From NCBI GenBank assembly GCA_000431315.1, contig HF989717.1:47925-111924 (forward strand): 64,000 bases of DNA, read 5' to 3'. The translations under genes and the position numbers were made by a program. The stretch comes from Brachyspira sp. CAG:484 (GTDB lineage: Bacteria > Cyanobacteriota > Vampirovibrionia > Gastranaerophilales > Gastranaerophilaceae). The notes beneath the pieces were generated by a model. That model was given only the letters and a program-made list of their open reading frames with translations, was not told the DNA's origin and did no database searches. The first letter of the stretch is position 1; every line of letters begins with the position of its first letter. Shown here one piece after another: positions 4,103-60,906 of this stretch.

Positions 4103-5062
4103 CTATTTGTTTTGTAAAATTCTCGTTTCGGCGAGTTTTGTATATTCCGGATTGAGTTCAATACCAATCCATTTACGGTTTAATCTGTTTGCAACAACAG
4201 CAGTCGTTCCGCTGCCTATAAACGGATCTAATACAATTCCATCTTCAGGGCAGCCGGCTTTGATTGGTATTTCTAAAAGTGCCGGAGGAAAAACCGCAAA
4301 GTGTGCTCCATGATATGCGTGAGTGGCAATACTCCAAACTGTTCGTGTATTTCTGCCTGATATTTCACCACTGAGCATTCGTTTTTGCAGACGTTCAAAA
4401 TTTGTTTTATTTAAACCCTGATAATTAGCACCTTTATTAATTCCGCATCCGCTTTTGCAGCGGTCATAAGTTGACTGTTTGATAGGCTCTAATTGTCTTT
4501 CAAAGTAATATTTTTTATTTTTGGAAAAGAAAAACAGGTATTCAAAATCTACTGTAAATCTGTCCTTTGCACTTGATGGAGTTGCATTAGGCTTTTGCCA
4601 GATGATTACATTGCGTACAGTCCAACCTCTGTTTGACATTTCAATAGCAAAACGGAACGGGATAAGAAGTAAACTTTTTGAATATTTCCCACGAGTATGG
4701 GCAACTTTTTGCAAATGTTCAACACTCTTTAAAAAAGAGGTCTCTCCTTTTGCTTTAACACCATAAGAGGAATTTAAAGAACAACCGCCATAAGTATCAC
4801 CAATATTTACCCAACAGGTGCCGTCATCTTTTAAAACACGTTTTACTTCATCAAAAATGTCACAGAGATGATTAATGTAGGCATTAAAATCAGGTTCTGT
4901 GCCGAGTTCTCCAAGCCAACCATCCTGCCATTTAACAGGATCAGTTTTATAATCACGCAGTCCCCAGTATGGCGGAGAAGTAATACACATATTTATGGAG
5001 GCATCGGGAAATGTTTTTAAGATTTCTAATGCGTTACCTATATGGATTTTATTCAAGTCCAT
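4103..5062 (-). CDS. DNA methyltransferase, N-4/N-6 family (beta class)
   Basis: Motif IV SPPY (CITSPPYWGLRDY) preceding C-terminal FIGSGTT SAM motif; start placed at MDLNKIHIGNALEIL with GGAGG RBS. Confidence 0.65.
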   Translation of the reverse strand: MDLNKIHIGNALEILKTFPDASINMCITSPPYWGLRDYKTDPVKWQDGWLGELGTEPDFNAYINHLCDIFDEVKRVLKDDGTCWVNIGDTYGGCSLNSSYGVKAKGETSFLKSVEHLQKVAHTRGKYSKSLLLIPFRFAIEMSNRGWTVRNVIIWQKPNATPSSAKDRFTVDFEYLFFFSKNKKYYFERQLEPIKQSTYDRCKSGCGINKGANYQGLNKTNFERLQKRMLSGEISGRNTRTVWSIATHAYHGAHFAVFPPALLEIPIKAGCPEDGIVLDPFIGSGTTAVVANRLNRKWIGIELNPEYTKLAETRILQNK

Positions 5063-6512
5063 CTGACCTCCCTTGCAGTTCACACAGGAAAAGTGCTTTT
5101 TGAAGAGATTGCTCAAACTTCTTTGAATGCAGGTTTTTATCCGTTAAAAGTTCGTAAGCCTCATCAAAGTCATCACAATCATCAAGCAATGAAATCAAAG
5201 GCGAAATTATCTGTTGAGACTGTTCATTTAATTTCTTTGTTGAAATAAACTCAAGCAGATTTTCTATCTGGTCTTGTCCGGGAACGGATGGCTCGTTTTC
5301 CTTGAATTCCTTAAACTGAGAATTTGTTGCAGGGATAACATCTTCCCTGATATCAAAATCCTCATCTTCAAGACCGTAGGCTTTAATAAAATATTCTTTA
5401 GTGAATTTAACACCGGTATCGGAGAGAATTTTGTCTCTCTGTGCAAGAGTCAAATCAACATCTTCCGGTGCATATAACTGAAATATCGGGACTTCTTCAT
5501 TAGAGAAATTAATTTCATAAATCCAACGAATAAGCTGGTTTATAACACTTTCAACGAGTTTTTTATCAGAATCAATAATATCCTGACGAACAGCCATGTG
5601 TGTATTTGCAGCAGCATAACTCCCTGTTGAACCGATTTCAGTCGTTAAAGTCTGTCCTAAGATTGCTTTTGAAATTTCAGAATTCATCTTGTCGATGAGT
5701 TTTTCATAAATCTCAGCAGATGAAGATTTATTTGCCTCTTGAATTTCAACAGACGAATCATCAGGAATAACAGCGATTGCATCTTGAACCATATCCTCTA
5801 ACATATCGGCGAGAGTCGTTGTTTCTTCTCTTGATGCTCCACGTGGGTGTTTGCCTATCAAATGCGGCATTCCGTATTTTTCCGTAAATACTACCCAAAA
5901 CTTGAGTCCGCCTTTTTTAAATGTTACAGACCAAAAGACACGAGATAATGTTCTCTCGCCGTAAGGATTGTTATAAGATGGATTATTCTGAGCAAGCAGG
6001 AACTTTTTATCAGGGACAATTTCGCCGTAGTAATTTTCTTTAGTTCTGAATTTTAAATTATTATCATCATCAAAACAAAACCATTCCGGCGGTTTTGCAA
6101 TAATTTTTTCAGGCAGAACGTGTCCTGATTTGGTTCTCTTCCAGATAATCTCTAAAGGCTGATAACCAAACTGCGTTGCATCAAGAATATCATTTATTAA
6201 TTTATGAATATCCAGTTTTTTAAGTAATTCTTCAATCGCCTCAGCATTTTTGTCTTTATCCAAACCACGATTGATTTCCCAATCAAGAGATAAAACACCT
6301 GCTTTTCTTGATTGAGTACAGGCAAAAACGTGAGGGTCACAAAGAAGTTCTTTGTAAATCCTAATATCTTTCCCCTGTTTTCTGAGAACAATATCAGGGT
6401 CGGGAAGAATGTTTGCCAGAGAATAAAAGTTTAATGCTCGTTTTCGGGTCGCAATTTCTTCTGACAAACTTTTTTTAGAGTTTGCTTTTTTGAGAATAGA
6501 ATCGTCTGTCAT
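5049..6512 (-). CDS. putative portal protein (Mu gp29 / DUF935-like)
   Basis: ~490 aa protein immediately upstream (in transcription order) of the F-like and G-like genes, as in Mu gp29-gp30-G; call rests on synteny and size, not a verified motif. Confidence 0.45.
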   Translation of the reverse strand: MTDDSILKKANSKKSLSEEIATRKRALNFYSLANILPDPDIVLRKQGKDIRIYKELLCDPHVFACTQSRKAGVLSLDWEINRGLDKDKNAEAIEELLKKLDIHKLINDILDATQFGYQPLEIIWKRTKSGHVLPEKIIAKPPEWFCFDDDNNLKFRTKENYYGEIVPDKKFLLAQNNPSYNNPYGERTLSRVFWSVTFKKGGLKFWVVFTEKYGMPHLIGKHPRGASREETTTLADMLEDMVQDAIAVIPDDSSVEIQEANKSSSAEIYEKLIDKMNSEISKAILGQTLTTEIGSTGSYAAANTHMAVRQDIIDSDKKLVESVINQLIRWIYEINFSNEEVPIFQLYAPEDVDLTLAQRDKILSDTGVKFTKEYFIKAYGLEDEDFDIREDVIPATNSQFKEFKENEPSVPGQDQIENLLEFISTKKLNEQSQQIISPLISLLDDCDDFDEAYELLTDKNLHSKKFEQSLQKALFLCELQGRSDGLE

Positions 6513-8473: not shown

Positions 8474-8920
8474 TTAAATTTCTAAATCTTGTATGTTTGT
8501 TGTGGTTAGTGTGAAATTAACTCCGTATTGCCATATACCGGCTTTTTCAGAGATGAAAAAATCTTTAGAGGGACTTAATTTTGAACAGCCGTCAGGTGCA
8601 AAACCTGTAAGAACGGCTTTAATTTTGTCAATATATTCGTATGCTCCCTCGTTTTTTCTGAGGTTTCGGGTTACAACAGTAATTGAAAATTCTTTTTTAT
8701 TTTCCTGAGATATAAACCCGAGTGCATCTGTTGAAGTGTAGTTACTTCCCTGATAATGCACAAGCAAAGCACCAATCGGATGAAGTAAAATAAATTCCGC
8801 AGGCTTATCGGGAAAACCTTGAACAAGAACTTCAGGGAACGTTGTTTTTAATTTTTCGATTATTGAATTTTCAATCTCTCTAATATTCAAGCATTCGATC
8901 CTTACTAAAAAGCCTGTCAA
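8474..8920 (-). CDS. hypothetical phage structural protein (head-tail joining or tail completion candidate)
   Basis: Position between gp36-like gene and sheath; no motif. Confidence 0.3.
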   Translation of the reverse strand: MTGFLVRIECLNIREIENSIIEKLKTTFPEVLVQGFPDKPAEFILLHPIGALLVHYQGSNYTSTDALGFISQENKKEFSITVVTRNLRKNEGAYEYIDKIKAVLTGFAPDGCSKLSPSKDFFISEKAGIWQYGVNFTLTTTNIQDLEI

Positions 8921-9398
8921 TTATTGACTTATTTGTTTTGTATTCTTCAACATTAAATCCTGCTGTTTCAAGGGAATCGTTTTCGCTTTGCAGGGATATA
9001 ACACCTTTTTGGATATCTTTGAGAGTTGAGATTGCGTTTTTGTAATTGTTTTCAATAACTTCCGGCATTTCATCTCTCATGCGTCTTGAATACAGACGGT
9101 GGATGCTTAAATCAATGGCAAGAATTCTGAGTAAAGGAAAGCGGCTCGCCGGCAGAGGCTGTAGGGGGCTGACGGAGTCAGAACCCGAAACGCCGTTTAA
9201 CGCCGGCGAACAAGAAGGGGCATCTAAGGGTAGAGTGTATCTGCCACGAAGATACCCATCGATGAGCGTAGAAGAATAAAGGATAGCCTCTTGGGCAACG
9301 ACACGATCGACAACTTCTTGCCCATCATCAGAAGTGAGCTGGATAAGAGTAGGGGTAGAGGTTTGTGTTTCGATATCTTCGATCGTGCAATAATCCAT
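8880..9398 (-). CDS. phage head-tail connector protein (Mu gp36 / DUF1320-like) carrying an in-frame GC-rich insertion
   Basis: DGYLRGRYTLPL...LRILAIDLSIHRLY resembles DUF1320; ~31 aa Ser/Pro-rich segment (DAPSCSPALNGVSGSDSVSPLQPLPASRFPL) is encoded by a GC-rich element. Confidence 0.5.
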   Translation of the reverse strand: MDYCTIEDIETQTSTPTLIQLTSDDGQEVVDRVVAQEAILYSSTLIDGYLRGRYTLPLDAPSCSPALNGVSGSDSVSPLQPLPASRFPLLRILAIDLSIHRLYSRRMRDEMPEVIENNYKNAISTLKDIQKGVISLQSENDSLETAGFNVEEYKTNKSIIDRLFSKDRMLEY

Positions 9399-27569: not shown

Positions 27570-27974
27570 ATGGGAGGACGTGGCTCAGGTGGAAGTCGTG
27601 GCGGTGGTGGAGGTAGTGCCAACACATCTTTAAAAAATCTATTAAATACATATGAGAATGATAATGACACATTTAGACAAAAATTTATGGATAAATACCA
27701 TGCAATGTCAGATGAAGAATTAAACAAAGCATACCGAACGACTCAAAATCAAATGAATCGTGCCAGAAGAAAATATGATTCCGAATTAGAAAAGTTTAAT
27801 TCAATTAGAAAAACATTTGCAGAAACACCCGAAAATGATAAGAATTTTCCTAAAATATCTGCTGAATTTGATAACCAAATAGCAATAGTCCAAAATGCAC
27901 GATTGCACTCTAATATGCGTTCACAAATTCACTATATTGCATTAAATGAGAAAAGAAATATTCGGAAGCAGTAA
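27570..27974 (+). CDS. hypothetical protein with Gly-rich N-terminus (paralog 2)
   Basis: Starts MGGRGSGGSRGGGGG; adjacent paralog of previous. Confidence 0.3.
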   Translation: MGGRGSGGSRGGGGGSANTSLKNLLNTYENDNDTFRQKFMDKYHAMSDEELNKAYRTTQNQMNRARRKYDSELEKFNSIRKTFAETPENDKNFPKISAEFDNQIAIVQNARLHSNMRSQIHYIALNEKRNIRKQ

Positions 27975-28068
27975 TTGTGTCTGAATGATACGGAATTGGG
28001 AGCAATGACTTCCAATTCTTTCTCTTCAGAGCGATGAATGTGGTTGTTAATAAATAAAGGAGGTCAAT
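27975..28068 (+). repeat. conserved intergenic element, copy 1 of 4 (stop-to-start)
   Basis: TTGTGTCTGAATGATACGG...AATGACTT...TTCAGAGCGATGAATGTG...AAGGAGG, then ATG. Confidence 0.7.
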
Positions 28069-29219: not shown

Positions 29220-29320
29220 TTAATGTGTCTGAATGATACGAAATGTCTGCAATGACTTCACTTTTGCCCTGCCAAGAGTGATGAATGTCAATGTAGAACA
29301 AAACATAAGGAGACAAAATT
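29220..29320 (+). repeat. conserved intergenic element, copy 2 of 4
   Basis: TAATTAATGTGTCTGAATGATACGAAAT...CAATGACTT...GAGTGATGAATGTCAATGTAGA...AAGGAGACAAAATT, then ATG. Confidence 0.7.
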
Positions 29321-29524
29321 ATGAACAGTAGACAACTGGAAAATTATTTTATTGACAAATTGTATGAGGATGAAGACATAAGTTATGTCGATACTTTTGA
29401 CAATTGTGGTCTTTTAACAAGAAATCAAGGGGTCGTTATCAAATTTAAAAATGGGGATGAGTTCCAAGTTACGATTGTAGAATCTCAATCTGGCAATGGC
29501 TTGGATGAGGAGGATGATTTTTAA
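29321..29524 (+). CDS. hypothetical small protein
   Basis: 67 aa ORF between repeat copies. Confidence 0.3.
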   Translation: MNSRQLENYFIDKLYEDEDISYVDTFDNCGLLTRNQGVVIKFKNGDEFQVTIVESQSGNGLDEEDDF

Positions 29525-29632
29525 ATCTATAAACATTGTGTCTGAATGATACGAAATGCACACAATGACTTGAGAAACGGACTATTCAGAGCGATTAATA
29601 TCAATGTAGACAAGCAAAGAAAGGATTAAATT
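29525..29632 (+). repeat. conserved intergenic element, copy 3 of 4
   Basis: ...TGTGTCTGAATGATACGAAATG...CAATGACTT...ATTCAGAGCGATTAATATCAATGTAGA... Confidence 0.7.
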
Positions 29633-29884
29633 ATGAAACAGACAACTTATAATATCAAATTTTCCGCAAGGGTAAATATTAGCGGAGATCTTCAAGTAAA
29701 AGCGGCAAGTGAAACCGAAGCACAAAAAATTGCAAGACTTATATTAAGACAAAATCTTAACAGTGAGGACTGCCTTATTGAAATAGGAGAAGACGATAAT
29801 AGCAATAACATTACAGTAAGAGAAATGACGCTGTTACCAAATATAACTGCTCTTGATATTCAAGATGCTATGCCACTTGATTAA
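29633..29884 (+). CDS. hypothetical small protein
   Basis: 83 aa ORF between repeat copies. Confidence 0.3.
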   Translation: MKQTTYNIKFSARVNISGDLQVKAASETEAQKIARLILRQNLNSEDCLIEIGEDDNSNNITVREMTLLPNITALDIQDAMPLD

Positions 29885-29981
29885 TGTGTCCGAATGATAC
29901 GAAACACCTGTAATGACTTGATGTATAGACTATTCAGAGTGATTAATGTCAATGTAGATAAGCAAAAGAAAGGACAAAATT
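29885..29981 (+). repeat. conserved intergenic element, copy 4 of 4
   Basis: TGTGTCCGAATGATACGAAAC...TAATGACTT...ATTCAGAGTGATTAATGTCAATGTAGA...AAGGACAAAATT, then ATG. Confidence 0.7.
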
Positions 29982-30497
29982 ATGGCAAAGAAAATTTTAA
30001 AAACGCAAAACAAAGAATGGGGGTTCTGGGGAACAACCGCACAACATTATACCAACAAAGAAACTCAACAGAGATGGAACGATGCTTTTGAAACCCTGCT
30101 TGAATTATCAGGAGCAAAACCCGAACAGGTTAGAGAATTATTAGATGCAAGAATCGGGAGACACTTCGCAGACCAGTGTTTTGGAGAAAAAGACGTTAAA
30201 CAAATTACAAAAGAATGTTATTTTAACTGGCTCGCAAAAGAATTATTTGATGATGCAAATTCTAAAAAGCCATTAGAAACAGAAAAGAATTCAGTTTTAT
30301 TCGGAACTAATGTTTATAACACCATTTATGACAGAGTCGATGTTGTATTATACACTTACAAAAATAAAAACAGAATCCACGAGGATTACGCTTTATGTAT
30401 AACTAAAGACCTTAAAAAATACAGAGTCGGAATGGATTACATTAAACCGATTGATGATATGGATGAGGAAGAATTATGCAAAGCCGGATTGGCTTAA
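29982..30497 (+). CDS. hypothetical protein
   Basis: 171 aa ORF after repeat copy 4; followed by terminator. Confidence 0.35.
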   Translation: MAKKILKTQNKEWGFWGTTAQHYTNKETQQRWNDAFETLLELSGAKPEQVRELLDARIGRHFADQCFGEKDVKQITKECYFNWLAKELFDDANSKKPLETEKNSVLFGTNVYNTIYDRVDVVLYTYKNKNRIHEDYALCITKDLKKYRVGMDYIKPIDDMDEEELCKAGLA

Positions 30498-30900: not shown

Positions 30901-31212
30901 CTATTTATCCGGCTTTGGCAAGTTGTGCTTTTTGTGGAGGTTCTTTTTTATAATTTTATAAATATATCTTTGAGATAAATCACATTCGATTGCGAGGCGG
31001 TTTACGGTATATTTTCTGCCGTCATACTGGCTCATGATATACTTTTCTTTTATTTCACGAAACGGATTTTTCGGAATACTTACTGTTAATCCCGGTGAGC
31101 AGAAAATAAGAGCCAAGGCGGATTTTATGCCGGCAGATTCTGCGATGAACTTTAAGTCATCGTTCGGCATATCTTCAGGTTTTATCAAGTCCATCCAAGG
31201 CTTGTAATCCAT
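30901..31212 (-). CDS. Mor-like transcriptional activator (Mu middle operon regulator family)
   Basis: C-terminal HTH NRLAIECDLSQRYIYKIIKK and central Gly-rich region as in Mor/C family; 103 aa. Confidence 0.5.
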   Translation of the reverse strand: MDYKPWMDLIKPEDMPNDDLKFIAESAGIKSALALIFCSPGLTVSIPKNPFREIKEKYIMSQYDGRKYTVNRLAIECDLSQRYIYKIIKKNLHKKHNLPKPDK

Positions 31213-31351
31213 AATCTCCTCTTATTTTGTGGTCTCATCAGTTAACGCATTACGTTAAGACGGTCAGCTTGGCGGATTGCCGGCAGAGGGTGCAAGCGTT
31301 AGCGATACCCGTTTAATGCCGGCAACCAAGAGTTAGTCGACCGTTTCGACC

Positions 31352-31630
31352 TTATTGTGCTAATGTTGTGGAGTAAGCATTTTCAATATCATTTCGAGAT
31401 TGTGTTAATGCGGTTAAAAGATTTTCATTAACATTTACTTCTCTAAGATATTGCGGCATTTTATCTATATCCTCAACGTATGGGAGCATATCTTTCGGGC
31501 TTTTAATATTTCTAATATCCATATCCATTGTTCGTATAACTACATCTGCAATATTAACTTTTGTCTGAGTAATTTTTTGTTGGATATCTACAATCCGTTG
31601 ATCCAAAACTGCTGTTGCTTTGTTTTCCAT
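31352..31630 (-). CDS. hypothetical protein
   Basis: 92 aa ORF with AAAGGAGACAAAA RBS. Confidence 0.3.
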   Translation of the reverse strand: MENKATAVLDQRIVDIQQKITQTKVNIADVVIRTMDMDIRNIKSPKDMLPYVEDIDKMPQYLREVNVNENLLTALTQSRNDIENAYSTTLAQ

Positions 31631-31729
31631 TTTTGTCTCCTTTACTTTTAATTGGTCTCATCAGTTAGAGCCTTACTCTAAGACGAGCCGCTTGATTTAT
31701 CAGCAGCTCGTTTCGACCTCGTGTAAACC

Positions 31730-32080: not shown

Positions 32081-32533
32081 CTACTCAAGTGTGGCCGCAC
32101 TTTTTTCTTTTAATTTCTTTTTTATTGCCGTTATTGCCTGAATAACTTTACAGGCTTTAGCTCTGGTCAAAAACATAATGTCATCGACCTTAAATTTTGA
32201 TTTTAAAAACTTTCGCAGGGATTTTTTCGCAAATTTATCATCATTGAAATAGCAGACATCTCTCCACAAACCCTCAATCATTCTGAGTTGTGCATCTGAT
32301 GCCATATTTTCTGTGCGATTCAAATCTGCATATTTTTTCGGCTGTTTAATCCATTTGTTTATAGCAACAGCTTTATCTTCAAGGATATCTACAAAAATTG
32401 ACGCTTCCGTAAATGTCAAATCCTTTGATGATGTAACATCAAAAGACATAAGCATTTCACGATATAAGTCGTCATCCATACCTATAACATTTTTTAATGC
32501 ATGAATTTTTCTAATCTGAAAAGTCGTAGCCAT
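32081..32533 (-). CDS. GemA-like protein (Mu gp16 / DUF1018)
   Basis: IRKIHALKNVIGMDDDLYREMLMSFDVTSSKDLTFTEASIFVDILE matches DUF1018 N-terminal region; located downstream of B-like gene as in Mu. Confidence 0.5.
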   Translation of the reverse strand: MATTFQIRKIHALKNVIGMDDDLYREMLMSFDVTSSKDLTFTEASIFVDILEDKAVAINKWIKQPKKYADLNRTENMASDAQLRMIEGLWRDVCYFNDDKFAKKSLRKFLKSKFKVDDIMFLTRAKACKVIQAITAIKKKLKEKSAATLE

Positions 32534-32687: not shown

Positions 32688-33566
32688 TCAAGCCATTAAT
32701 AATTTGGAAGTTTGTTTAATCACAGCAGCATCGACCTCAGCCTTACCGTTGAATTTAGCAATGCTGATGCTGTGAGAAATTAAGTGTTCTAATCTTCTTG
32801 TGTTTCCATCCGAATACTGAAGATACGTTTCAGCAAGTTTTGTATTCTGACCGATAGACTCAAGAATTTTTATGACGTCTTGAATCAAAATTTTGTCTAT
32901 AATTTTTGTAAATTTAACTCTTGAATAAAGTTGGTCATACTGATTATTGTAGCCTTTCAGATTTTCAAGCAAAATTCCTCTGCCAACTAAAAGAATACCT
33001 ACACCTGCTTTATCATGGATCCGGCGGGTAATTTCTAAGGCTCTATATGGAAGATTTTCAGCCTCATCGATAATTAAAAGTCTGCCGGATTGGTTTAATT
33101 TTCTTACAACTTCATCCATCAAGTCATAAACCGAACCCTTACCGGAAAGTCCTAAACGTCTGTGGATTTCCTTGAGAAGTGATTTTGCGGTGTAACCTGA
33201 ATCGCTTTCAATAAGAAGGGAATCCATAAATTCTTTTATATATCTTTTTACGGCAACGGTTTTACCGAGTCCGGCTTTACCGACACAAACGCCGATTTTA
33301 CCCTGAGTATGACAAAGTCTGCCGATTTCAGTAATATATTTAACCGTTGAAATATCTACAAAAGGCAAGTCACTGTTGCCGGTACGTTCTCTTTCCCTTT
33401 GAATAAAATTATTCATTGCATCGGTGATTTTATCATTCTTACCGTTATAATTGCCGTTCAACCACATACTGATTGTAGATTTAGCCAGACCTGTTGCAGT
33501 AGAAACATAGGCAATACTGTAGTTTTTGGTTTCCATTAAATCTCGCAATTCAGTCCTAATATCCAT
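32688..33566 (-). CDS. DNA transposition ATPase (MuB-like, AAA+)
   Basis: N-terminal HTH, Walker A GKAGLGKT, Walker B LLIIDEAENL; immediately downstream of transposase. Confidence 0.65.
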   Translation of the reverse strand: MDIRTELRDLMETKNYSIAYVSTATGLAKSTISMWLNGNYNGKNDKITDAMNNFIQRERERTGNSDLPFVDISTVKYITEIGRLCHTQGKIGVCVGKAGLGKTVAVKRYIKEFMDSLLIESDSGYTAKSLLKEIHRRLGLSGKGSVYDLMDEVVRKLNQSGRLLIIDEAENLPYRALEITRRIHDKAGVGILLVGRGILLENLKGYNNQYDQLYSRVKFTKIIDKILIQDVIKILESIGQNTKLAETYLQYSDGNTRRLEHLISHSISIAKFNGKAEVDAAVIKQTSKLLMA

Positions 33567-35499
33567 TTGCTACTCCTTTTAATTCTTGTTCGAGGATTTT
33601 ATCCGTTTCATATAAATAGAGCGGCTTATCCTCCGGCTTAGTTTCGTCAATGAACATTGACAGATCATATTTTCCAAAAGATTCCATCTCTTTATTTTTA
33701 CGAATCGCTTTGTCCATATTAGTGTTGGCAATTCTTGAAACTTTCGGTTTTGCCTCTTTTTCTACGCTGGCATATGCCGCTTTATAATTTGCACATTTTT
33801 CTTCAATGCTAATTTCACGAGTTTGTTTAATATATGATTTTGCAATCTTCAAACTGCGTTTTTTAATAGACATTGCTTCTTTAAATGCCTCTTTTGAAAC
33901 TTCATCTGCATGTAATGCGGCAACAGCTTTGACAGCTGTCGCTTTGCCCACAAAGGCATTGTTATCGGCTCTAAATACCCACGCAATTTTGTAATTCTGA
34001 ATATCCCGGCGGAGATAGACTTTTAATCCTGTATGGGATATCATCCAATCAGCCCAGTAAGTAATACCTAATTGATTATCTTTAATACCATTTCTTCTAA
34101 TAGTGTAATCTTTAGAAGTTCTGGTGCAGAATAATTTCAAAGCATCACTGCTTACTGTAATTTTTTCTTTAAATTCCTGATTAAATAACTCATCAGGAGA
34201 TAAACCTTTAAGGTTCTTACCCTGCGAGGAACGTTTGTTGAGAACATTAATCACAAAATCATCAAAAACTTCCTTAAACTCATTAAACGGAATAATTTTA
34301 CCGGCTTTAATTTCTTTTGCTAATTTTTCAGGACGTTCAACAACATTTCCGCCTCTATAACCTACACAGTGTTTTGATAAAAGTTCTTTTATCTTTAAGA
34401 AATCTCTTTCTATAGGTTTTGTTTGTGCATTATATGGTAATGCAAAATTTGCCCTGATATTTAATTCAGAAAGCATACATGTTGTTTCAAATTGGTCTGC
34501 TTCAATTTTAAATTTACGACCGCCGGCAAAGTCTTTTGAACGATAATCTTTACCGTTATCAATAATCACATCTTTTGGCAGTCCGTATTGCTCGGCAGCA
34601 TAATAAAAAGATTGAAATATATGGTCAGAATTAGGATGCCCGCATTGCAGAATCCAACCGAGCCATTTCCCTGATTTATAATCTCGCCAAGCTGTAACCC
34701 AAGGAAATACAACGTTGCCGTCTTGAGTAAGACAGGCAACGTCAATTTGAGCGTGGTCTGAAACCCACACTTCACCGCAAATTACAGAAGAGTAATCTCT
34801 ATCAATGTAATTGCCGTATTTCCTATTCCAAGCGGATTCCCCATATCTCGCTAAATAAATACTTTGCTCAGGAATTTCACGCTCCAAACGTCTTTTAAAA
34901 GTTGCGTGACAAGGAAATTCATATCTACTAATTCCATATTCACGCATTGCATATCCTAGGGTTTGCTCCCAACAACTCCGCAGGGATGGCGCACCCTCAA
35001 CTAAATAAAGATTTTTAAAATATTCAAAATAACAATCTTCAATTATTGATCTGCCTGAATTATTACCATATTTTGATAGCAAACCATTTATTCCACTAGT
35101 AAAGTATCTATTTCTCATTCTAATTAAGGAAGAATAAGATGTTTGGTTATCAGGATTATTTTTATTCCAATTTTCGATGAACAGTTTTAAGGCTCTGCCT
35201 TTCAAACAAAGACTTTTTTTGATAACATCTATGTATCTGTCTGCCTGAATTCGTGACCATAAAGGGGCTTCAGAATATTTTTTATTATCAGATTCGTTGT
35301 CAACTTTTTTTGATATAGGTAAAGATGAATAACGAATAAAAATTTGTTTTATATTATCTTTTACTTCAATTTTATAAATAAAATCACCTTTGTAGCAGCG
35401 ATTTTTGATTGTCTTTTCTTTGACATTCAAAAGGTTACACGCTTCTTGAATTGAAATCCAAGTCGGAATATTTGATTTTACTTGCTTGATTTCATTCAT
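33556..35499 (-). CDS. Mu-type DDE transposase (MuA-like)
   Basis: N-terminal HTH; catalytic VWVSDHAQIDV (D), IIDNGKDYRS (D), PYNAQTKPIERDF (E) in rve-like core; 647 aa. Confidence 0.7.
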   Translation of the reverse strand: MNEIKQVKSNIPTWISIQEACNLLNVKEKTIKNRCYKGDFIYKIEVKDNIKQIFIRYSSLPISKKVDNESDNKKYSEAPLWSRIQADRYIDVIKKSLCLKGRALKLFIENWNKNNPDNQTSYSSLIRMRNRYFTSGINGLLSKYGNNSGRSIIEDCYFEYFKNLYLVEGAPSLRSCWEQTLGYAMREYGISRYEFPCHATFKRRLEREIPEQSIYLARYGESAWNRKYGNYIDRDYSSVICGEVWVSDHAQIDVACLTQDGNVVFPWVTAWRDYKSGKWLGWILQCGHPNSDHIFQSFYYAAEQYGLPKDVIIDNGKDYRSKDFAGGRKFKIEADQFETTCMLSELNIRANFALPYNAQTKPIERDFLKIKELLSKHCVGYRGGNVVERPEKLAKEIKAGKIIPFNEFKEVFDDFVINVLNKRSSQGKNLKGLSPDELFNQEFKEKITVSSDALKLFCTRTSKDYTIRRNGIKDNQLGITYWADWMISHTGLKVYLRRDIQNYKIAWVFRADNNAFVGKATAVKAVAALHADEVSKEAFKEAMSIKKRSLKIAKSYIKQTREISIEEKCANYKAAYASVEKEAKPKVSRIANTNMDKAIRKNKEMESFGKYDLSMFIDETKPEDKPLYLYETDKILEQELKGVANGY

Positions 35500-36053: not shown

Positions 36054-36743
36054 TTAAGAAATATTAAGCAAATTAACTTTTAAATCATAATACAGTTCTT
36101 CAAAACTCTTTTCATGTCTCCAAATATATTCAGCCAGTCGAAAATACATATATTTTTCATTAATATTGTGGCTTTCAATTCTTGAAAGATAGCAATACAT
36201 CCGTTTAAATTCCCGAACTTCTTCCTTGCTGTAATTCTTTTCAAGAGTGGCTCTAAGAAGTTTATCACTTATAAATACTTGATTGTTGTAAACATAGAAA
36301 TAAGCATATTTTTCATAAAATTTGCGATATCTTCCTATTTGTGGTTTTTCGAAAAACAGGCGGAATAGTTCTTTAATTTGTCTTTCGTATATTAATTTTC
36401 TAAATAAAAAATAATAATCACATATACATTTATCTTTGACGCTGATAAAATGTTGTAATTTTTGTGGTGAAATTTCCAAGCAAAAACCTTTTAAAATAAT
36501 TTCAATTTCCTCATCAGAACGGTATTGAAACATCAAATAAAGATTTTTATTTAGAATGTCACCCTTTATTTTTTTAGTATAAGCAGGAGTTATAATTCCA
36601 TTCTTTTCTTGAATCAGTCCTTCCTGCTCCAAACACAAAACAACAGTTTCAATAATAGGTTGTTCGGTTTCCATAAATTGTACAATATCTTCAAGCGTAC
36701 ATTTTTTCAATCTTTTGCACAGTTTTAATACTTGGTCTTTCAT
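36054..36743 (-). CDS. hypothetical protein with N-terminal winged-helix-like domain
   Basis: 229 aa; LEDIVQFMETEQPIIETVVLCLEQEGLIQEKNG looks wHTH-like; downstream of second ATPase. Confidence 0.3.
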   Translation of the reverse strand: MKDQVLKLCKRLKKCTLEDIVQFMETEQPIIETVVLCLEQEGLIQEKNGIITPAYTKKIKGDILNKNLYLMFQYRSDEEIEIILKGFCLEISPQKLQHFISVKDKCICDYYFLFRKLIYERQIKELFRLFFEKPQIGRYRKFYEKYAYFYVYNNQVFISDKLLRATLEKNYSKEEVREFKRMYCYLSRIESHNINEKYMYFRLAEYIWRHEKSFEELYYDLKVNLLNIS

Positions 36744-37422
36744 TCAATATTCCTTTCAAAGTATATTCATCAAGTTCATCAATTTTATTTGTTTCGGATA
36801 TTTTTTCAATTCTGTTAATCAGCTTAACTAGTTGTCTGAACTGGTTTGTCCTTGTTGACAAATATTCTATTGCATCTTCAGTAAAATTAAGACCCGTAAG
36901 TTCCGCTATAATTTCTTTTATATCAGAACTGTTAAATTGTTCAAATTTCAGTTTCTTAAAAAGCCTGTCTTCGAAATGTTTAAACCTTGCAATCTTTTTA
37001 TCCATAGACCCCATTCCTGATAATACAATAGGACAGCCTGTTAAATCCTGAATATCCCTCAATATTTCTATTACATTTTTACTGCCAATTAGGTAATCAA
37101 CTTCATCGACAATAATTATTTTCGATTGTTGTTTTAGTATTTTTACTATTAAATTAAAATTTTCCTGAGAAATATAAAAAGGTCTTTCCCCAAGTTCTTC
37201 AAGTATTTCCCTTAATAATCCACCTTGTGTCATTTCATTATTTGCTCTAACGTAAACCGCATCATTTCGTGTTGCCCACCAGATAATTGTATTTGTTTTT
37301 CCGAGTCCATGGTCGCCGTAAACTAATGCAAGTTTCGGAATATTCGGCGGAAGTTTCTGCAACTCGTCCATTAAAGCCACAAACCGCTTGACGTTTTTTG
37401 TTTTAATAAATGTTTTCTTCAT
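36691..37422 (-). CDS. transposition AAA+ ATPase (TniB/TnsC/MuB-like), second copy
   Basis: Walker A GDHGLGKT, Walker B IIIVDEVDYL; 243 aa, directly downstream of second transposase. Confidence 0.55.
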   Translation of the reverse strand: MKKTFIKTKNVKRFVALMDELQKLPPNIPKLALVYGDHGLGKTNTIIWWATRNDAVYVRANNEMTQGGLLREILEELGERPFYISQENFNLIVKILKQQSKIIIVDEVDYLIGSKNVIEILRDIQDLTGCPIVLSGMGSMDKKIARFKHFEDRLFKKLKFEQFNSSDIKEIIAELTGLNFTEDAIEYLSTRTNQFRQLVKLINRIEKISETNKIDELDEYTLKGILNERPSIKTVQKIEKMYA

Positions 37423-37425
37423 AGA

Positions 37426-39423
37426 TTAATCTCCATATAAGTTGTAATATTCATCGCTTTTTATATAATCCGCAAGCCACTTTCTATCCTGCGGATTTGT
37501 TGTTCCGTTTGTCATCAACCATTCATATTTTTCATAATTTGAATTAAACATCGGCACGTTCATCTGCTGTTCACGAGGTGTTTGCTTATGTTCACGTTTC
37601 GGCTTTGGTTGTTCTTCTATTTCCAAAACAGGTTCCGGTTCAATTTCTAAAACCTGAAGTTCATCTTTAGTAAATGTCTTTTTAATTTGTTTGATAAGTC
37701 TGCTTTTAATTTTCTGTTGCTTTTGGTACTGCTGCTTGTATTCCTCCATATCTTTAACTGTGCCAAGAATATTTGCCATCGGATGCACTTTTTGTACCCT
37801 GTGAGCCACGCATAAAAATTCACCTTTCATTGAATAAACATGAACCTTTGAAAGGTCAAATAAACTGTAACGGACATAAACCTTATCCCGAAGTCCAAGG
37901 ATAACATCACTCCTGTAATGCATTCCGAGAAACGTTATTCCATGTTTATTTATCGTCCTTGATTCAGTTTTCATCATTAAATAATCAAGTGCAGATTTAT
38001 TAATATCTTGTTTCCGAACAGAGTTTAATACCTCTTGAATGCTTCTTGAACGATCATTAGGACAGGCTTTTTGATTTCTGTATTCAAGCCAGGCATTGAT
38101 ATATTTAATAACATCTTGTACTGTGGGAATATTTCCTTTTGTTTGTTGATTATGAAGTCGCAAATGCAAATTTTCATTTCTATTCATCCACGCAGGACGG
38201 TTTTCAATTGAAGTACCGATATAACTTGGCATAAGTTTTTCAAATTCTTCCTGAAAATCTAAGAAAAATCTTTCTATAACTTTTGCACGTGCATTGTATG
38301 GTTTAGCAAAAACGGAGTGAATACCTAAATTGGCATACACTCCGTTAAAACACTCCTCATCAAAATCCACATTCTGAAAGTATTTAGATTTAAATGCTTT
38401 TCCGTTATCCTGATAAACTACTTTAGGAATTATTCCGAGATTTAAAATAGCGTTCCTTAAAGCACTTGCAATACATTGAGTATTTTCTGTCATCATAATT
38501 TCATATCCTACGAGTGCTGTTGATTTCCAATCTAAAAAGCCGACCAGAGTTGCTCTAGTCGGCTTTCCTGTGAACGGATTTATTACCTGGAAGTTGAGAA
38601 CATGTCCGTCTGCAATTAACACATCTCCCACTTCAATTTTAGAAATATCTCTTTCTATATACGGTTCAACCTTATCGTGATACACTTTTTCACCCTCTCG
38701 TCTTAACACCCACTCCGCATAATGATTTCTTCTGAAATGCTCCGCAAACCTTTTAAAAGTTATATTACTCGGCAGAGCTTCTTCATCATATCCTTTTTTA
38801 ATCAATACTTGTTTTGCAAGTCTGATTGCCGTATTATATCCGAATTTATTCTGATGAAGTAAAAGAGCAAGCAGAACTTTTTTCATATTGTCATCTAAAA
38901 TGCTGTTATACTCACCTTGCTTTGTTATTTTGTATTGGGGTATTAGGGATTCTGCGTTGCCTGTTTTCTTGTAGGTTTGTATGTATCTTCTCAAAGTTCC
39001 GATTGAAATACTTCCCAAAAATTCGTATGCTTTTGGTAAATACAACCCGGAATTATACAGGTCTAAAAATTCCGTATCAGCTTCTTTTATTGTCGGATAT
39101 TTATTTCTATGTTCCAGTGCGGCTTTAACAATATTCATTCTGTGATTTGCCGTCAATCTTGCTTTATCCGTTACAGTCGGCGGTTTGTAATTAAGGGGAA
39201 CTATAGCCGTTGATTTGGTTTCGCATTCCCGAAGTTTTTGTTGTAATTCAGGTTCTAAACTTGAAAACAATATTTCGTATGACATTCCGCCGTTAACTTT
39301 GATTTCTCTTGAAATATATTTGCTTTCAGGTTTGTTTATTTCCATTCGGATTGAGCGGGTACTCTTTAATCCCTTAGCCTGTGCGATTTCTTTAATAGTT
39401 ACATATTCATTCATGGTACACAC
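37426..39423 (-). CDS. Mu/Tn552-type DDE transposase, second copy
   Basis: N-terminal HTH; VLIADGHVLNF (D), VYQDNGKAFKS (D), PYNARAKVIERFF (E); 665 aa. Confidence 0.65.
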   Translation of the reverse strand: MCTMNEYVTIKEIAQAKGLKSTRSIRMEINKPESKYISREIKVNGGMSYEILFSSLEPELQQKLRECETKSTAIVPLNYKPPTVTDKARLTANHRMNIVKAALEHRNKYPTIKEADTEFLDLYNSGLYLPKAYEFLGSISIGTLRRYIQTYKKTGNAESLIPQYKITKQGEYNSILDDNMKKVLLALLLHQNKFGYNTAIRLAKQVLIKKGYDEEALPSNITFKRFAEHFRRNHYAEWVLRREGEKVYHDKVEPYIERDISKIEVGDVLIADGHVLNFQVINPFTGKPTRATLVGFLDWKSTALVGYEIMMTENTQCIASALRNAILNLGIIPKVVYQDNGKAFKSKYFQNVDFDEECFNGVYANLGIHSVFAKPYNARAKVIERFFLDFQEEFEKLMPSYIGTSIENRPAWMNRNENLHLRLHNQQTKGNIPTVQDVIKYINAWLEYRNQKACPNDRSRSIQEVLNSVRKQDINKSALDYLMMKTESRTINKHGITFLGMHYRSDVILGLRDKVYVRYSLFDLSKVHVYSMKGEFLCVAHRVQKVHPMANILGTVKDMEEYKQQYQKQQKIKSRLIKQIKKTFTKDELQVLEIEPEPVLEIEEQPKPKREHKQTPREQQMNVPMFNSNYEKYEWLMTNGTTNPQDRKWLADYIKSDEYYNLYGD

Positions 39424-40075: not shown

Positions 40076-40152
40076 TGGGGCGGATAGTGGGATTCGAACC
40101 CACGTATATCGGAACCACAATCCGAGGTCTTAACCACTTGACGATATCCGCC
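40076..40152 (-). tRNA. tRNA-His (anticodon GTG)
   Basis: Minus-strand cloverleaf: G-1 plus acceptor GCGGATA/TATCCGC, anticodon stem TCGGA/TCCGA with loop TTGTGGT, T-loop GTGGGTTCGAATCCCAC, encoded CCA. Confidence 0.8.
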
Positions 40153-60725: not shown

Positions 60726-60906
60726 TAGAGGCAAATGTGATATAATCTTGTAACCTGTAACTCCATACGCAAGACAACTGTAATCTGCTCAATCCAAAGC
60801 AAGTGAACTCGCTTACGCTCAGACAGCACTTGCATTTGTTATTATTTCGCAGAACATTGTCTGCTCATTACGTTGAGGTTACAAGATTATATCACATTTG
60901 CCTCTA
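60726..60906. repeat. 31 bp perfect inverted repeats flanking a 119 bp structured spacer
   Basis: TAGAGGCAAATGTGATATAATCTTGTAACCT (60726-60756) and its exact reverse complement (60876-60906). Confidence 0.8.

Follow-up and report, generated by a model that had tools for sequence, protein, structure and literature searches.

A family of short GC-rich hairpin repeats in Gastranaerophilales and their Mu-like prophages, with copies found in frame within genes

A conserved connector gene of a Mu-like prophage carries a GC-rich, palindromic segment in the middle of its reading frame, which raises the question of whether this segment belongs to the gene or is a small mobile element that entered it without breaking the frame; the initial annotation had proposed the latter, by analogy with the RPEs of Rickettsia. 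The window (the whole stretch of 64,000 nucleotides that was analysed) is a segment of a Gastranaerophilales chromosome containing a Mu-like prophage, a tRNA-His gene and host genes. The prophage encodes MuA (33556-35499), a MuB-like ATPase, GemA and Mor, and a second Mu-type transposase/TniB module lies at 36.7-39.4 kb. The 172-aa ORF in question matches PF07030 (Phage_Mu_Gp36) with an E value of 1.5e-26 and 93.4 bits, against a gathering cutoff of 24.7 in Pfam, and its neighbours constitute a Mu-like morphogenesis block (capsid, cement, gp37, sheath, tube, portal and Mu F genes). The GenBank phage collection contained no DNA match to this gene. The gene and the segment are as follows.

8880-9398, minus strand: Mu gp36/DUF1320-type gene for the head-tail connector (172 aa; empty alleles, 147 aa)
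9141-9215, minus strand: hairpin element of 75 nt, in frame in the gp36-like gene (alignments of filled and empty DNA; covariance model, 83.5 bits)

The comparison of alleles with and without the segment (filled and empty) confirmed that it lies in frame in gp36 and corrected its size from the ~90 bp and ~31 aa first proposed to exactly 75 nt and 25 aa (SCSPALNGVSGSDSVSPLQPLPASR). The DNA of L001 and L003 is 99.3-99.8% identical to the window apart from a single clean 75-nt gap, the filled L007 and the empty L013 are 99.1% identical to each other, and the protein of an empty allele (P0008) is 100% identical to the gp36 protein of the window outside the insert. Only 9 of the 120 closest gp36 protein clusters listed carry the insert (169-173 aa), most of the others being 145-150 aa long and lacking it, which bears out the expectation that gp36 homologs generally do without the segment; all ten IMG/VR relatives (10/10) are likewise empty. 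The insertion point is located between a His and a Phe codon (CAT/TTT, the slash marking the junction), and the junction CAT/TCTTG...CCGC/TTT is fixed to within 1 nt of ambiguity by L023 and L025, in which the His codon is retained. No target-site duplication was found at the gp36 junction. Element variants of 69 nt (L023 and L024) also keep the frame.

Locally, GC content reaches 0.53-0.59 over the element (100-nt windows), compared with 0.26-0.40 in the downstream part of gp36 and the neighbouring gene, and is 0.63 for the element including its flanks; the two GCCGGC palindromes described in the initial annotation are indeed present, at 9148-9153 and 9202-9207. The hexamer GCCGGC occurs 13 times in the whole window, against 3.85 expected from shuffles, and only four of these occurrences lie within the two element copies of the window. 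The insert is presumably translated, in which case a Ser/Pro/Gly-rich loop of 25 aa would have been gained between two helices of a gp36 that still functions. The AF2 model of the filled protein is poor (mean pLDDT 56), and in this model the insert region (residues 57-86, pLDDT <50) is a coil between helices 32-50 and 88-106, a placement weakly consistent with a tolerated surface loop. One further gp36 allele, P0087 (150 aa), keeps the first half of the element peptide (PSCSPALNGV) and lacks the second half together with the following FPLLRI, the result either of a secondary deletion across the element or of faulty assembly.

A related sequence had been noticed near 31280-31345, in what was taken to be an intergenic spacer, along with a sister spacer at 31653-31720 that lacks it. 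The likeness is real: the related sequence (31279-31323) lies inside a full unit at 31272-31331, the element has its highest-scoring local alignment in the window, other than with itself, at 31303-31331, and the similarity score was reached by 0 of 300 dinucleotide shuffles, which excludes a chance alignment. A covariance model built from 25 copies, both copies of the window among them, scored these two at 83.5 and 70 bits and its next match in the window at 17 bits. This third candidate (4202-4261) was rejected because it shows no indel relative to the related prophage L005. The absence of the element from the sister spacer was also correct, yet the description of the two sites as plain spacers has to be abandoned, since both are predicted type II hammerhead ribozymes on the minus strand and the second copy occupies the stem III loop of one of them.

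31272-31331, minus strand: second element copy of 60 nt, short-tip subtype, in the stem III loop of HH1 (covariance model, 70 bits)
31231-31351, minus strand: predicted type II hammerhead HH1 (MFE fold with three-way junction; family covariation)
31654-31718, minus strand: predicted type II hammerhead HH2, the sister spacer without the element (MFE fold; family covariation)

Both predicted ribozymes show the same order on the minus strand, GGUC-GAAA-[stem III]-GUC/-[stem I hairpin]-CUGAUGA-GACC, and in both the hammerhead core (CUGANGA, GAAA, A15.1-U16.1 and H17, with three stems of which stem II is open) is complete; HH1 comprises the open stem II GGUC/GACC, the core GAAA, A15.1-U16.1, C17, the stem I hairpin and CUGAUGA. 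Among 11 hammerhead relatives from IMG/VR, 99.5% of cells are paired, and compensatory changes occur in ten pairs outside those fixed by the search pattern. The hammerhead models of Rfam gave no match at the gathering score, the only hit being a truncated Hammerhead_1 at 11 bits for HH2 (gathering score 34). In two empty orthologs that share stem I with HH1 (L079:2180-2244 and L082:3815-3879), the loop of stem III reads AACGGTGCA, whereas HH1 of the window has AAC[60 nt]CA there; the element is thus placed at the stem III tip and does no more than extend this stem. The HH1 junction is not clean, the GGTG of the loop being lost.

The surroundings of these ribozymes present several features of their own. 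The distance between HH1 and HH2 on the transcribed strand is 423 nt; the pair is located between Mor (30901-31212) and GemA (32081-32533) and brackets a 92-aa ORF (31352-31630), so that cleavage at both predicted hammerheads would free a discrete RNA of ~423 nt; many covarying relatives, which the Rfam models miss, occur in Mu-like phages of IMG/VR. Four copies of an intergenic motif of ~95 nt (27974-28068, 29222-29322, 29535-29634 and 29883-29983, all on the plus strand) lie directly upstream of small plus-strand genes and read TGTGTCTGAATGATACGAAA ... AATGACTT ... TTCAGAGCGATGAATGT ... AATGTAG; TCTGAA and TTCAGA in this motif can pair, Rfam gave no match, and either a 5'-UTR RNA or promoters of the Mor/C type could be its identity. 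The host part of the window also contains a 31-nt inverted repeat without mismatches, TAGAGGCAAATGTGATATAATCTTGTAACCT, whose arms (60726-60756 and 60876-60906) are 119 nt apart.

The two copies in the window are members of a dispersed family, as the expectation of further copies had implied. A search with the pattern GCCGGCRTTAAACGG-N(12-42)-CTCTGCCGGC matched 48 loci in species-representative genomes, 18 in metagenomes and two in viral sequences, compared with a chance expectation that we estimate at ~0.07 in 596 Gb. Nearly all taxonomically labelled loci are from Gastranaerophilales/Melainabacteria; Mu-like prophages also hold copies, and the covariance model detects more diverged copies beyond the pattern. 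The family belongs primarily to this host lineage and its Mu-like prophages. A single MAG contains at least 12 copies. Intergenic copies adjoin purD, purA, nusB, an SBP gene and a GGDEF gene, and copies abut head to tail or are nested in L060, L068 and L075, with an inverted doublet in L041 (5604-5684, plus strand; 5698-5784, minus strand). In three MAGs, many copies are located ~70 nt downstream of paralogous prepilin-like genes, an association suggesting that part of the copy number may stem from gene-family duplication rather than transposition. No family matching the element was detected by Rfam, either over the whole window at the gathering score or over the two element regions, the L075 array and 16 loci at E values up to 10 or the gathering score, and our literature search turned up no account of elements like these in Melainabacteria or their prophages.

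Two particular arrangements deserve a separate description. In three BRZ Gastranaerophilales MAGs (L029-L075; e.g. L075, 490-1010), the element lies inside a GC-rich repeat unit of ~250 nt that resembles nested copies, with an outer CTTG-GAT-TTGC...GCAA-ATC-CGC; this unit is antisense to the prepilin-like genes ~70 nt upstream and is sometimes tandemly duplicated. In L028 (1560-1720), the element is positioned at the junction of a Mu-type transposase gene and the next gene, where it is bracketed by an imperfect duplication of the start of that next gene (ATGAAACCGATTTTG / ATGAAACCTAAATTTG), as if the gene start had been regenerated after insertion.

The copies share a unit of the form (N)CTTG-NNN-GCCGGC-R-UUAAAC-GGS-[internal loop + variable hairpin]-SCC-UC-U-GCCGGC-NNN-CCGC, one strand of which folds into a three-tier hairpin. 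The sense (minus) strand of the gp36 element reads TCTTGTTC-GCCGGC-G-TTAAAC-GGC...GCC-TC-T-GCCGGC-GAG-CCGC, and its RNA fold has a free energy of -34.2 kcal/mol (z -3.4); its basal stem, P1, is formed by the following arms.

9201-9211, minus strand: 5' arm of P1, including GCCGGC at 9202-9207 (fold; covariation)
9144-9154, minus strand: 3' arm of P1, including GCCGGC at 9148-9153 (fold; covariation)

The search pattern itself accounts in part for how well GCCGGCRTTAAACGG and CTCTGCCGGC are conserved in the scanned copies; outside the pattern positions, all copies have in common CTT(G/A) at the 5' side and C(C)GC at the 3' side. All of them also have three covarying pairs that extend the GCCGGC stem, followed by an R-U closing pair and an asymmetric internal loop, UUAAAC / UC. 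The 3-bp P2 switches between GGG/CCC and GGC/GCC in concert, and beyond it are a second internal loop and a tip hairpin of unrelated sequence and length. Of the 13 P1/P2 pairs, four have undergone compensatory change, and pairing holds in 96% of cells, a level that 0 of 500 shuffles attained and no slid register approached. In L024, the palindrome itself has undergone a double compensatory change (GCCGAC...GTCGGC). Twelve different copies folded independently into the same three-tier hairpin (z -2.5 to -5.1), which, together with the compensatory changes, establishes the conserved hairpin anticipated in the initial annotation. At two P1 positions, 31 of 50 cells are wobble pairs (G-U/U-G), so that the CTTG strand yields the better structure, an indication of a single-stranded form, either RNA or one DNA strand.

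Several known structures were considered and set aside. Given the nearby hammerheads, twister, pistol and hatchet ribozymes and riboswitches were examined, and were rejected because nothing matched and because in-ORF copies occur antisense. With respect to attC sites, GTTAAAC fits GTTRRRY, but half of the copies have ATTAAAC and no paired R'' box is present; neither the size nor the architecture fits attC sites, DGR template/variable repeats, inteins or group I/II introns.

Within gp36, filled alleles are scattered among empty ones in a pattern that is patchy with respect to the gene tree, and the same site is filled in alleles that are only 78-87% identical. Between gp36 alleles, 41-45 of the 46 positions of the hairpin base are identical, including 14-15 of 16 third codon positions, compared with 51-73% identity at flanking third codon positions; the tip has diverged like neutral sites (e.g. 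12/23 identical) and still pairs as a hairpin. A conserved base combined with a free tip indicates that selection, or repeated replacement, acts on the nucleic acid and not on the peptide.

This recurrence at one site could reflect a single old insertion that was passed on by homologous or microhomology recombination and lost through replacement by empty alleles, rather than repeated site-specific insertion, an account that we regard as possible and hold only tentatively. It agrees with the location of all gp36 copies at exactly one nucleotide position, with flanks that encode a conserved D-A/T-H before and F-P-L-L after the junction and thereby offer ~10 nt of microhomology per side, and with the frequent presence of co-resident Mu-like prophages in these genomes; recombination between such co-resident phages may explain the common gp36 site. 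However, similarity of the flanks decays within ~0-12 nt of the junction and so reveals no conversion tract, the element retains 97-99% identity where the genes themselves have only 78-87%, and the family reaches unrelated sites by some other route.

These unrelated sites include other genes. About eight independent in-frame insertions were identified: in gp36, in a portal gene, at two sites in a methylase gene, at three sites in Mu-type transposase genes and in one unknown ORF. They occur in both orientations and in four reading frames (two sense and two antisense), the remaining two frames being closed, on our reading of the sequence, by the TAA within TTAAAC / GTTTAA. Every in-ORF copy is a stop-free multiple of three (75 and 69 nt in gp36; 60 and 75 nt, and 18-20 aa, in others). 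The seven or so further insertions support the earlier proposal of a mobile palindromic element that enters ORFs in frame as RPEs do.

The clearest examples come from the prophages L009 and L007, which are 97.7% identical and differ by two extra insertions in L009, namely an antisense copy that adds 60 nt to the portal gene and a sense copy that adds 75 nt near the start of the C5 methylase gene (junction ACT/.../TTT); another antisense copy is present in the 3' end of the methylase gene in both prophages. Copies therefore come and go between nearly identical phages. Neither of the two L009 insertions has a target-site duplication, and the portal junction is not clean, with AC in place of T. 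In Mu-type transposase genes, the copies fall in two regions: L040/L074 contain an antisense in-frame copy (+20 aa), and the copies of L063 (antisense, +18 aa) and L095 (sense) lie within a few residues of each other. L092 harbours an in-frame antisense copy in an unknown 562-aa ORF. No target motif is common to the sites (T/TTTC is seen twice, A/AAAG and C/CAAG once each), and the 5' flanks differ (CAT, ACT, TGA/TGG, AAC and TCT).

The 665-aa transposase of the window (rve and Mu-transpos_C) is empty at both regions, although the hairpin element is present in frame in homologs from elsewhere. With a TniB-like ATPase it makes up a module at 36691-39423 (minus strand). This module is located beside the prophage's own MuA and next to tRNA-His (40076-40151, minus strand), and may be a separate transposon or a prophage remnant.

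The distribution of copies over strands and contexts bears on an unlikely alternative, in which the hairpin acts in the first place as a functional RNA or as a module that binds protein (serving, for example, in RNase processing or mRNA stability, or as a terminator-like element or a binding site for host or phage proteins) that was recruited widely, with mobility being secondary. A strongly constrained base and internal loop (UUAAAC/UC) with a free tip would be as in structured RNAs, the G-U wobbles indicate a single functional strand, the element is in transcript sense at gp36, HH1 and the methylase 5' site, and T runs follow many intergenic copies. Against this, the element is antisense to the mRNA in the portal gene, at two transposase sites, in the methylase 3' end, in L092 and in the copies downstream of pilin-like genes, its presence or absence between phages 98-99.8% identical shows it to be dispensable there, no Rfam family corresponds to it, and its contexts have nothing in common.

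It is highly improbable that the 75 nt escape translation, either by removal as a mini-intron or by ribosome bypass as in T4 gene 60 or the mitochondrial byp elements of Magnusiomyces. A stable GC-rich hairpin within an AT-rich ORF would suit such an event, as would the derivation of the byp elements from GC-cluster mobile elements. However, stop-free multiples of three in four frames, as found for all in-ORF copies, are expected only if the element is read through, and neither a take-off/landing codon pair nor intron-like ends were seen. The notion that the segment is a lineage-specific low-complexity loop of gp36, resembling 31279-31323 by chance, can draw on its Ser/Pro/Gly-rich composition and predicted disorder but is refuted by the shuffle test (0/300), by ~70 further copies of like architecture and by covariation, since substitutions keep the nucleic-acid hairpin and not the peptide.

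We conclude that the gp36 segment belongs to a family of ~60-85-nt GC-rich hairpin repeats that had no name before and whose members populate the AT-rich genomes of gut Gastranaerophilales (Melainabacteria) as well as their Mu-like prophages. We assign a probability of roughly 0.8 to the explanation as a whole, that is, to an unnamed REP-like, non-autonomous hairpin family with in-frame copies, RPE-like behaviour and mobilisation in trans. A copy has inserted between the His and Phe codons of gp36 without target-site duplication, and its length (75 or 69 nt) and freedom from stop codons preserve the frame. On this explanation, insertions would be seen only at harmless places, such as in-frame surface loops, RNA hairpin tips and spacers. 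The element would be moved in trans as a folded single strand, in a manner similar to REP/RAYT or IS200/IS605 systems. Such mobilisation would explain the missing duplication, the strand-specific G-T/G-U wobbles, the conserved base with its flanking tetranucleotides, and also the apparently precise gain and loss. What counts against it is that the sites have no common target motif, that two junctions are unclean, that part of the pilin-associated copies may reflect gene duplication and that no HUH ORF was found: a phmmer search of 0.9 Mb of flanking DNA with approximate IS608/IS200 TnpA queries, of limited sensitivity, returned no Y1/HUH transposase-like ORF. Clustering of the ORFs at 49 loci for a linked transposase left nothing recurrent except prepilin-like proteins and the pair formed by a Mu-type transposase and its partner ATPase.

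A bolder proposal, which we consider conceivable although doubtful, is that the family represents an active single-hairpin element of a new mechanistic type, with no duplication, re-use of sites and precise excision, which Mu-like phages would carry from one Melainabacteria species to another and which would reshape essential proteins of the phages, and even ribozyme stems, on the way. The re-used sites would be the CAT/TTT junction of gp36 and the one Mu-type transposase loop entered in both orientations, and an enzyme so far unconnected with elements of this kind would recognise the base GCCGGC-R-UUAAAC-GGS / SCC-UC-U-GCCGGC together with CTTG and CCGC.

To our knowledge, the in-frame colonisation of genes by palindromic repeats has so far been treated as a peculiarity of Rickettsia. 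The family described here is new, and with it selfish DNA inside genes, in the Rickettsia style, also occurs in phages: the behaviour now extends to a distant lineage, to essential phage genes (connector, portal and transposase) and to the inside of a predicted ribozyme. The clean pairs of filled and empty alleles in near-identical genomes constitute a tractable natural experiment on the insertion tolerance of proteins and structured RNAs, and the element is a sequence marker that assigns uncultured Mu-like phages to hosts among the Gastranaerophilales. With the family, a nucleic-acid motif on which a mobilising enzyme would act is defined as well. Such insertions inflate and fragment protein families in metagenomic annotation.

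Among known systems, the RPEs are the closest in behaviour. They are ~100-150 bp long and occur in Rickettsia, and each family encodes a conserved peptide in one frame, whereas the unit described here measures 60-85 nt, occurs in Melainabacteria and their phages, is read in four frames and both orientations, and is under selection as a nucleic-acid hairpin, not as a peptide. RPEs are short palindromic repeats located in frame in a range of unrelated protein-coding genes, where they are apparently translated, and in non-coding DNA as well; they are tolerated because the added peptide is compatible with the protein fold (PMC10969869). In-frame insertion into unrelated genes is what we observe in gp36, the portal gene, the methylase, the transposases and the unknown ORF. 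Since the hosts here are Gastranaerophilales, the element is an analogue of the RPEs and not a member.

Classical MITEs have terminal inverted repeats and target-site duplications, are ~90% intergenic and are documented as common to viruses or phages and their hosts (PMC11602168). Our elements resemble them as small non-autonomous repeats present both in host chromosomes and in phages, and provide a similarly useful host-virus link; the classical definition nevertheless fails, because three fully resolved junctions lack a target-site duplication. The P1 arms are subterminal inverted repeats, and no parent IS was found among the neighbours. The GC clusters of yeast mitochondria, which are mobile, palindromic and also present in coding regions, offer a parallel as GC-rich palindromic clusters in an AT-rich genome; they belong to another domain of life and another sequence family. 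Miniature derivatives of IS200/IS605 (PATEs) would supply single-strand hairpin recognition, insertion without duplication and precise excision, which would explain both the clean gain and loss of copies and the strand asymmetry. However, such derivatives have one hairpin at the left end and another at the right, and they enter DNA 3' of an invariant sequence of four or five nucleotides, whereas our element has one hairpin and its 5' flanks differ from site to site.

REPs are 20-40 nt long, contain GTAG, lie outside genes by definition and occur together with a RAYT (TnpA_REP) gene. Our family resembles REPs and REPINs in part in its single GC-rich imperfect hairpin beside a conserved tetranucleotide, and further in the lack of terminal inverted repeats beyond the stem and of target duplication and in its many dispersed copies, some in tandem or inverted doublets. 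It differs in its longer hairpin (60-85 nt) of three tiers, in its motifs CTTG (5') and CCGC (3') in place of GTAG, in having about eight copies inside ORFs, and in that approximate queries detected no RAYT in the 0.9 Mb of flanking DNA examined. In architecture, the family is closest to the REPs, and in behaviour it matches the RPEs.
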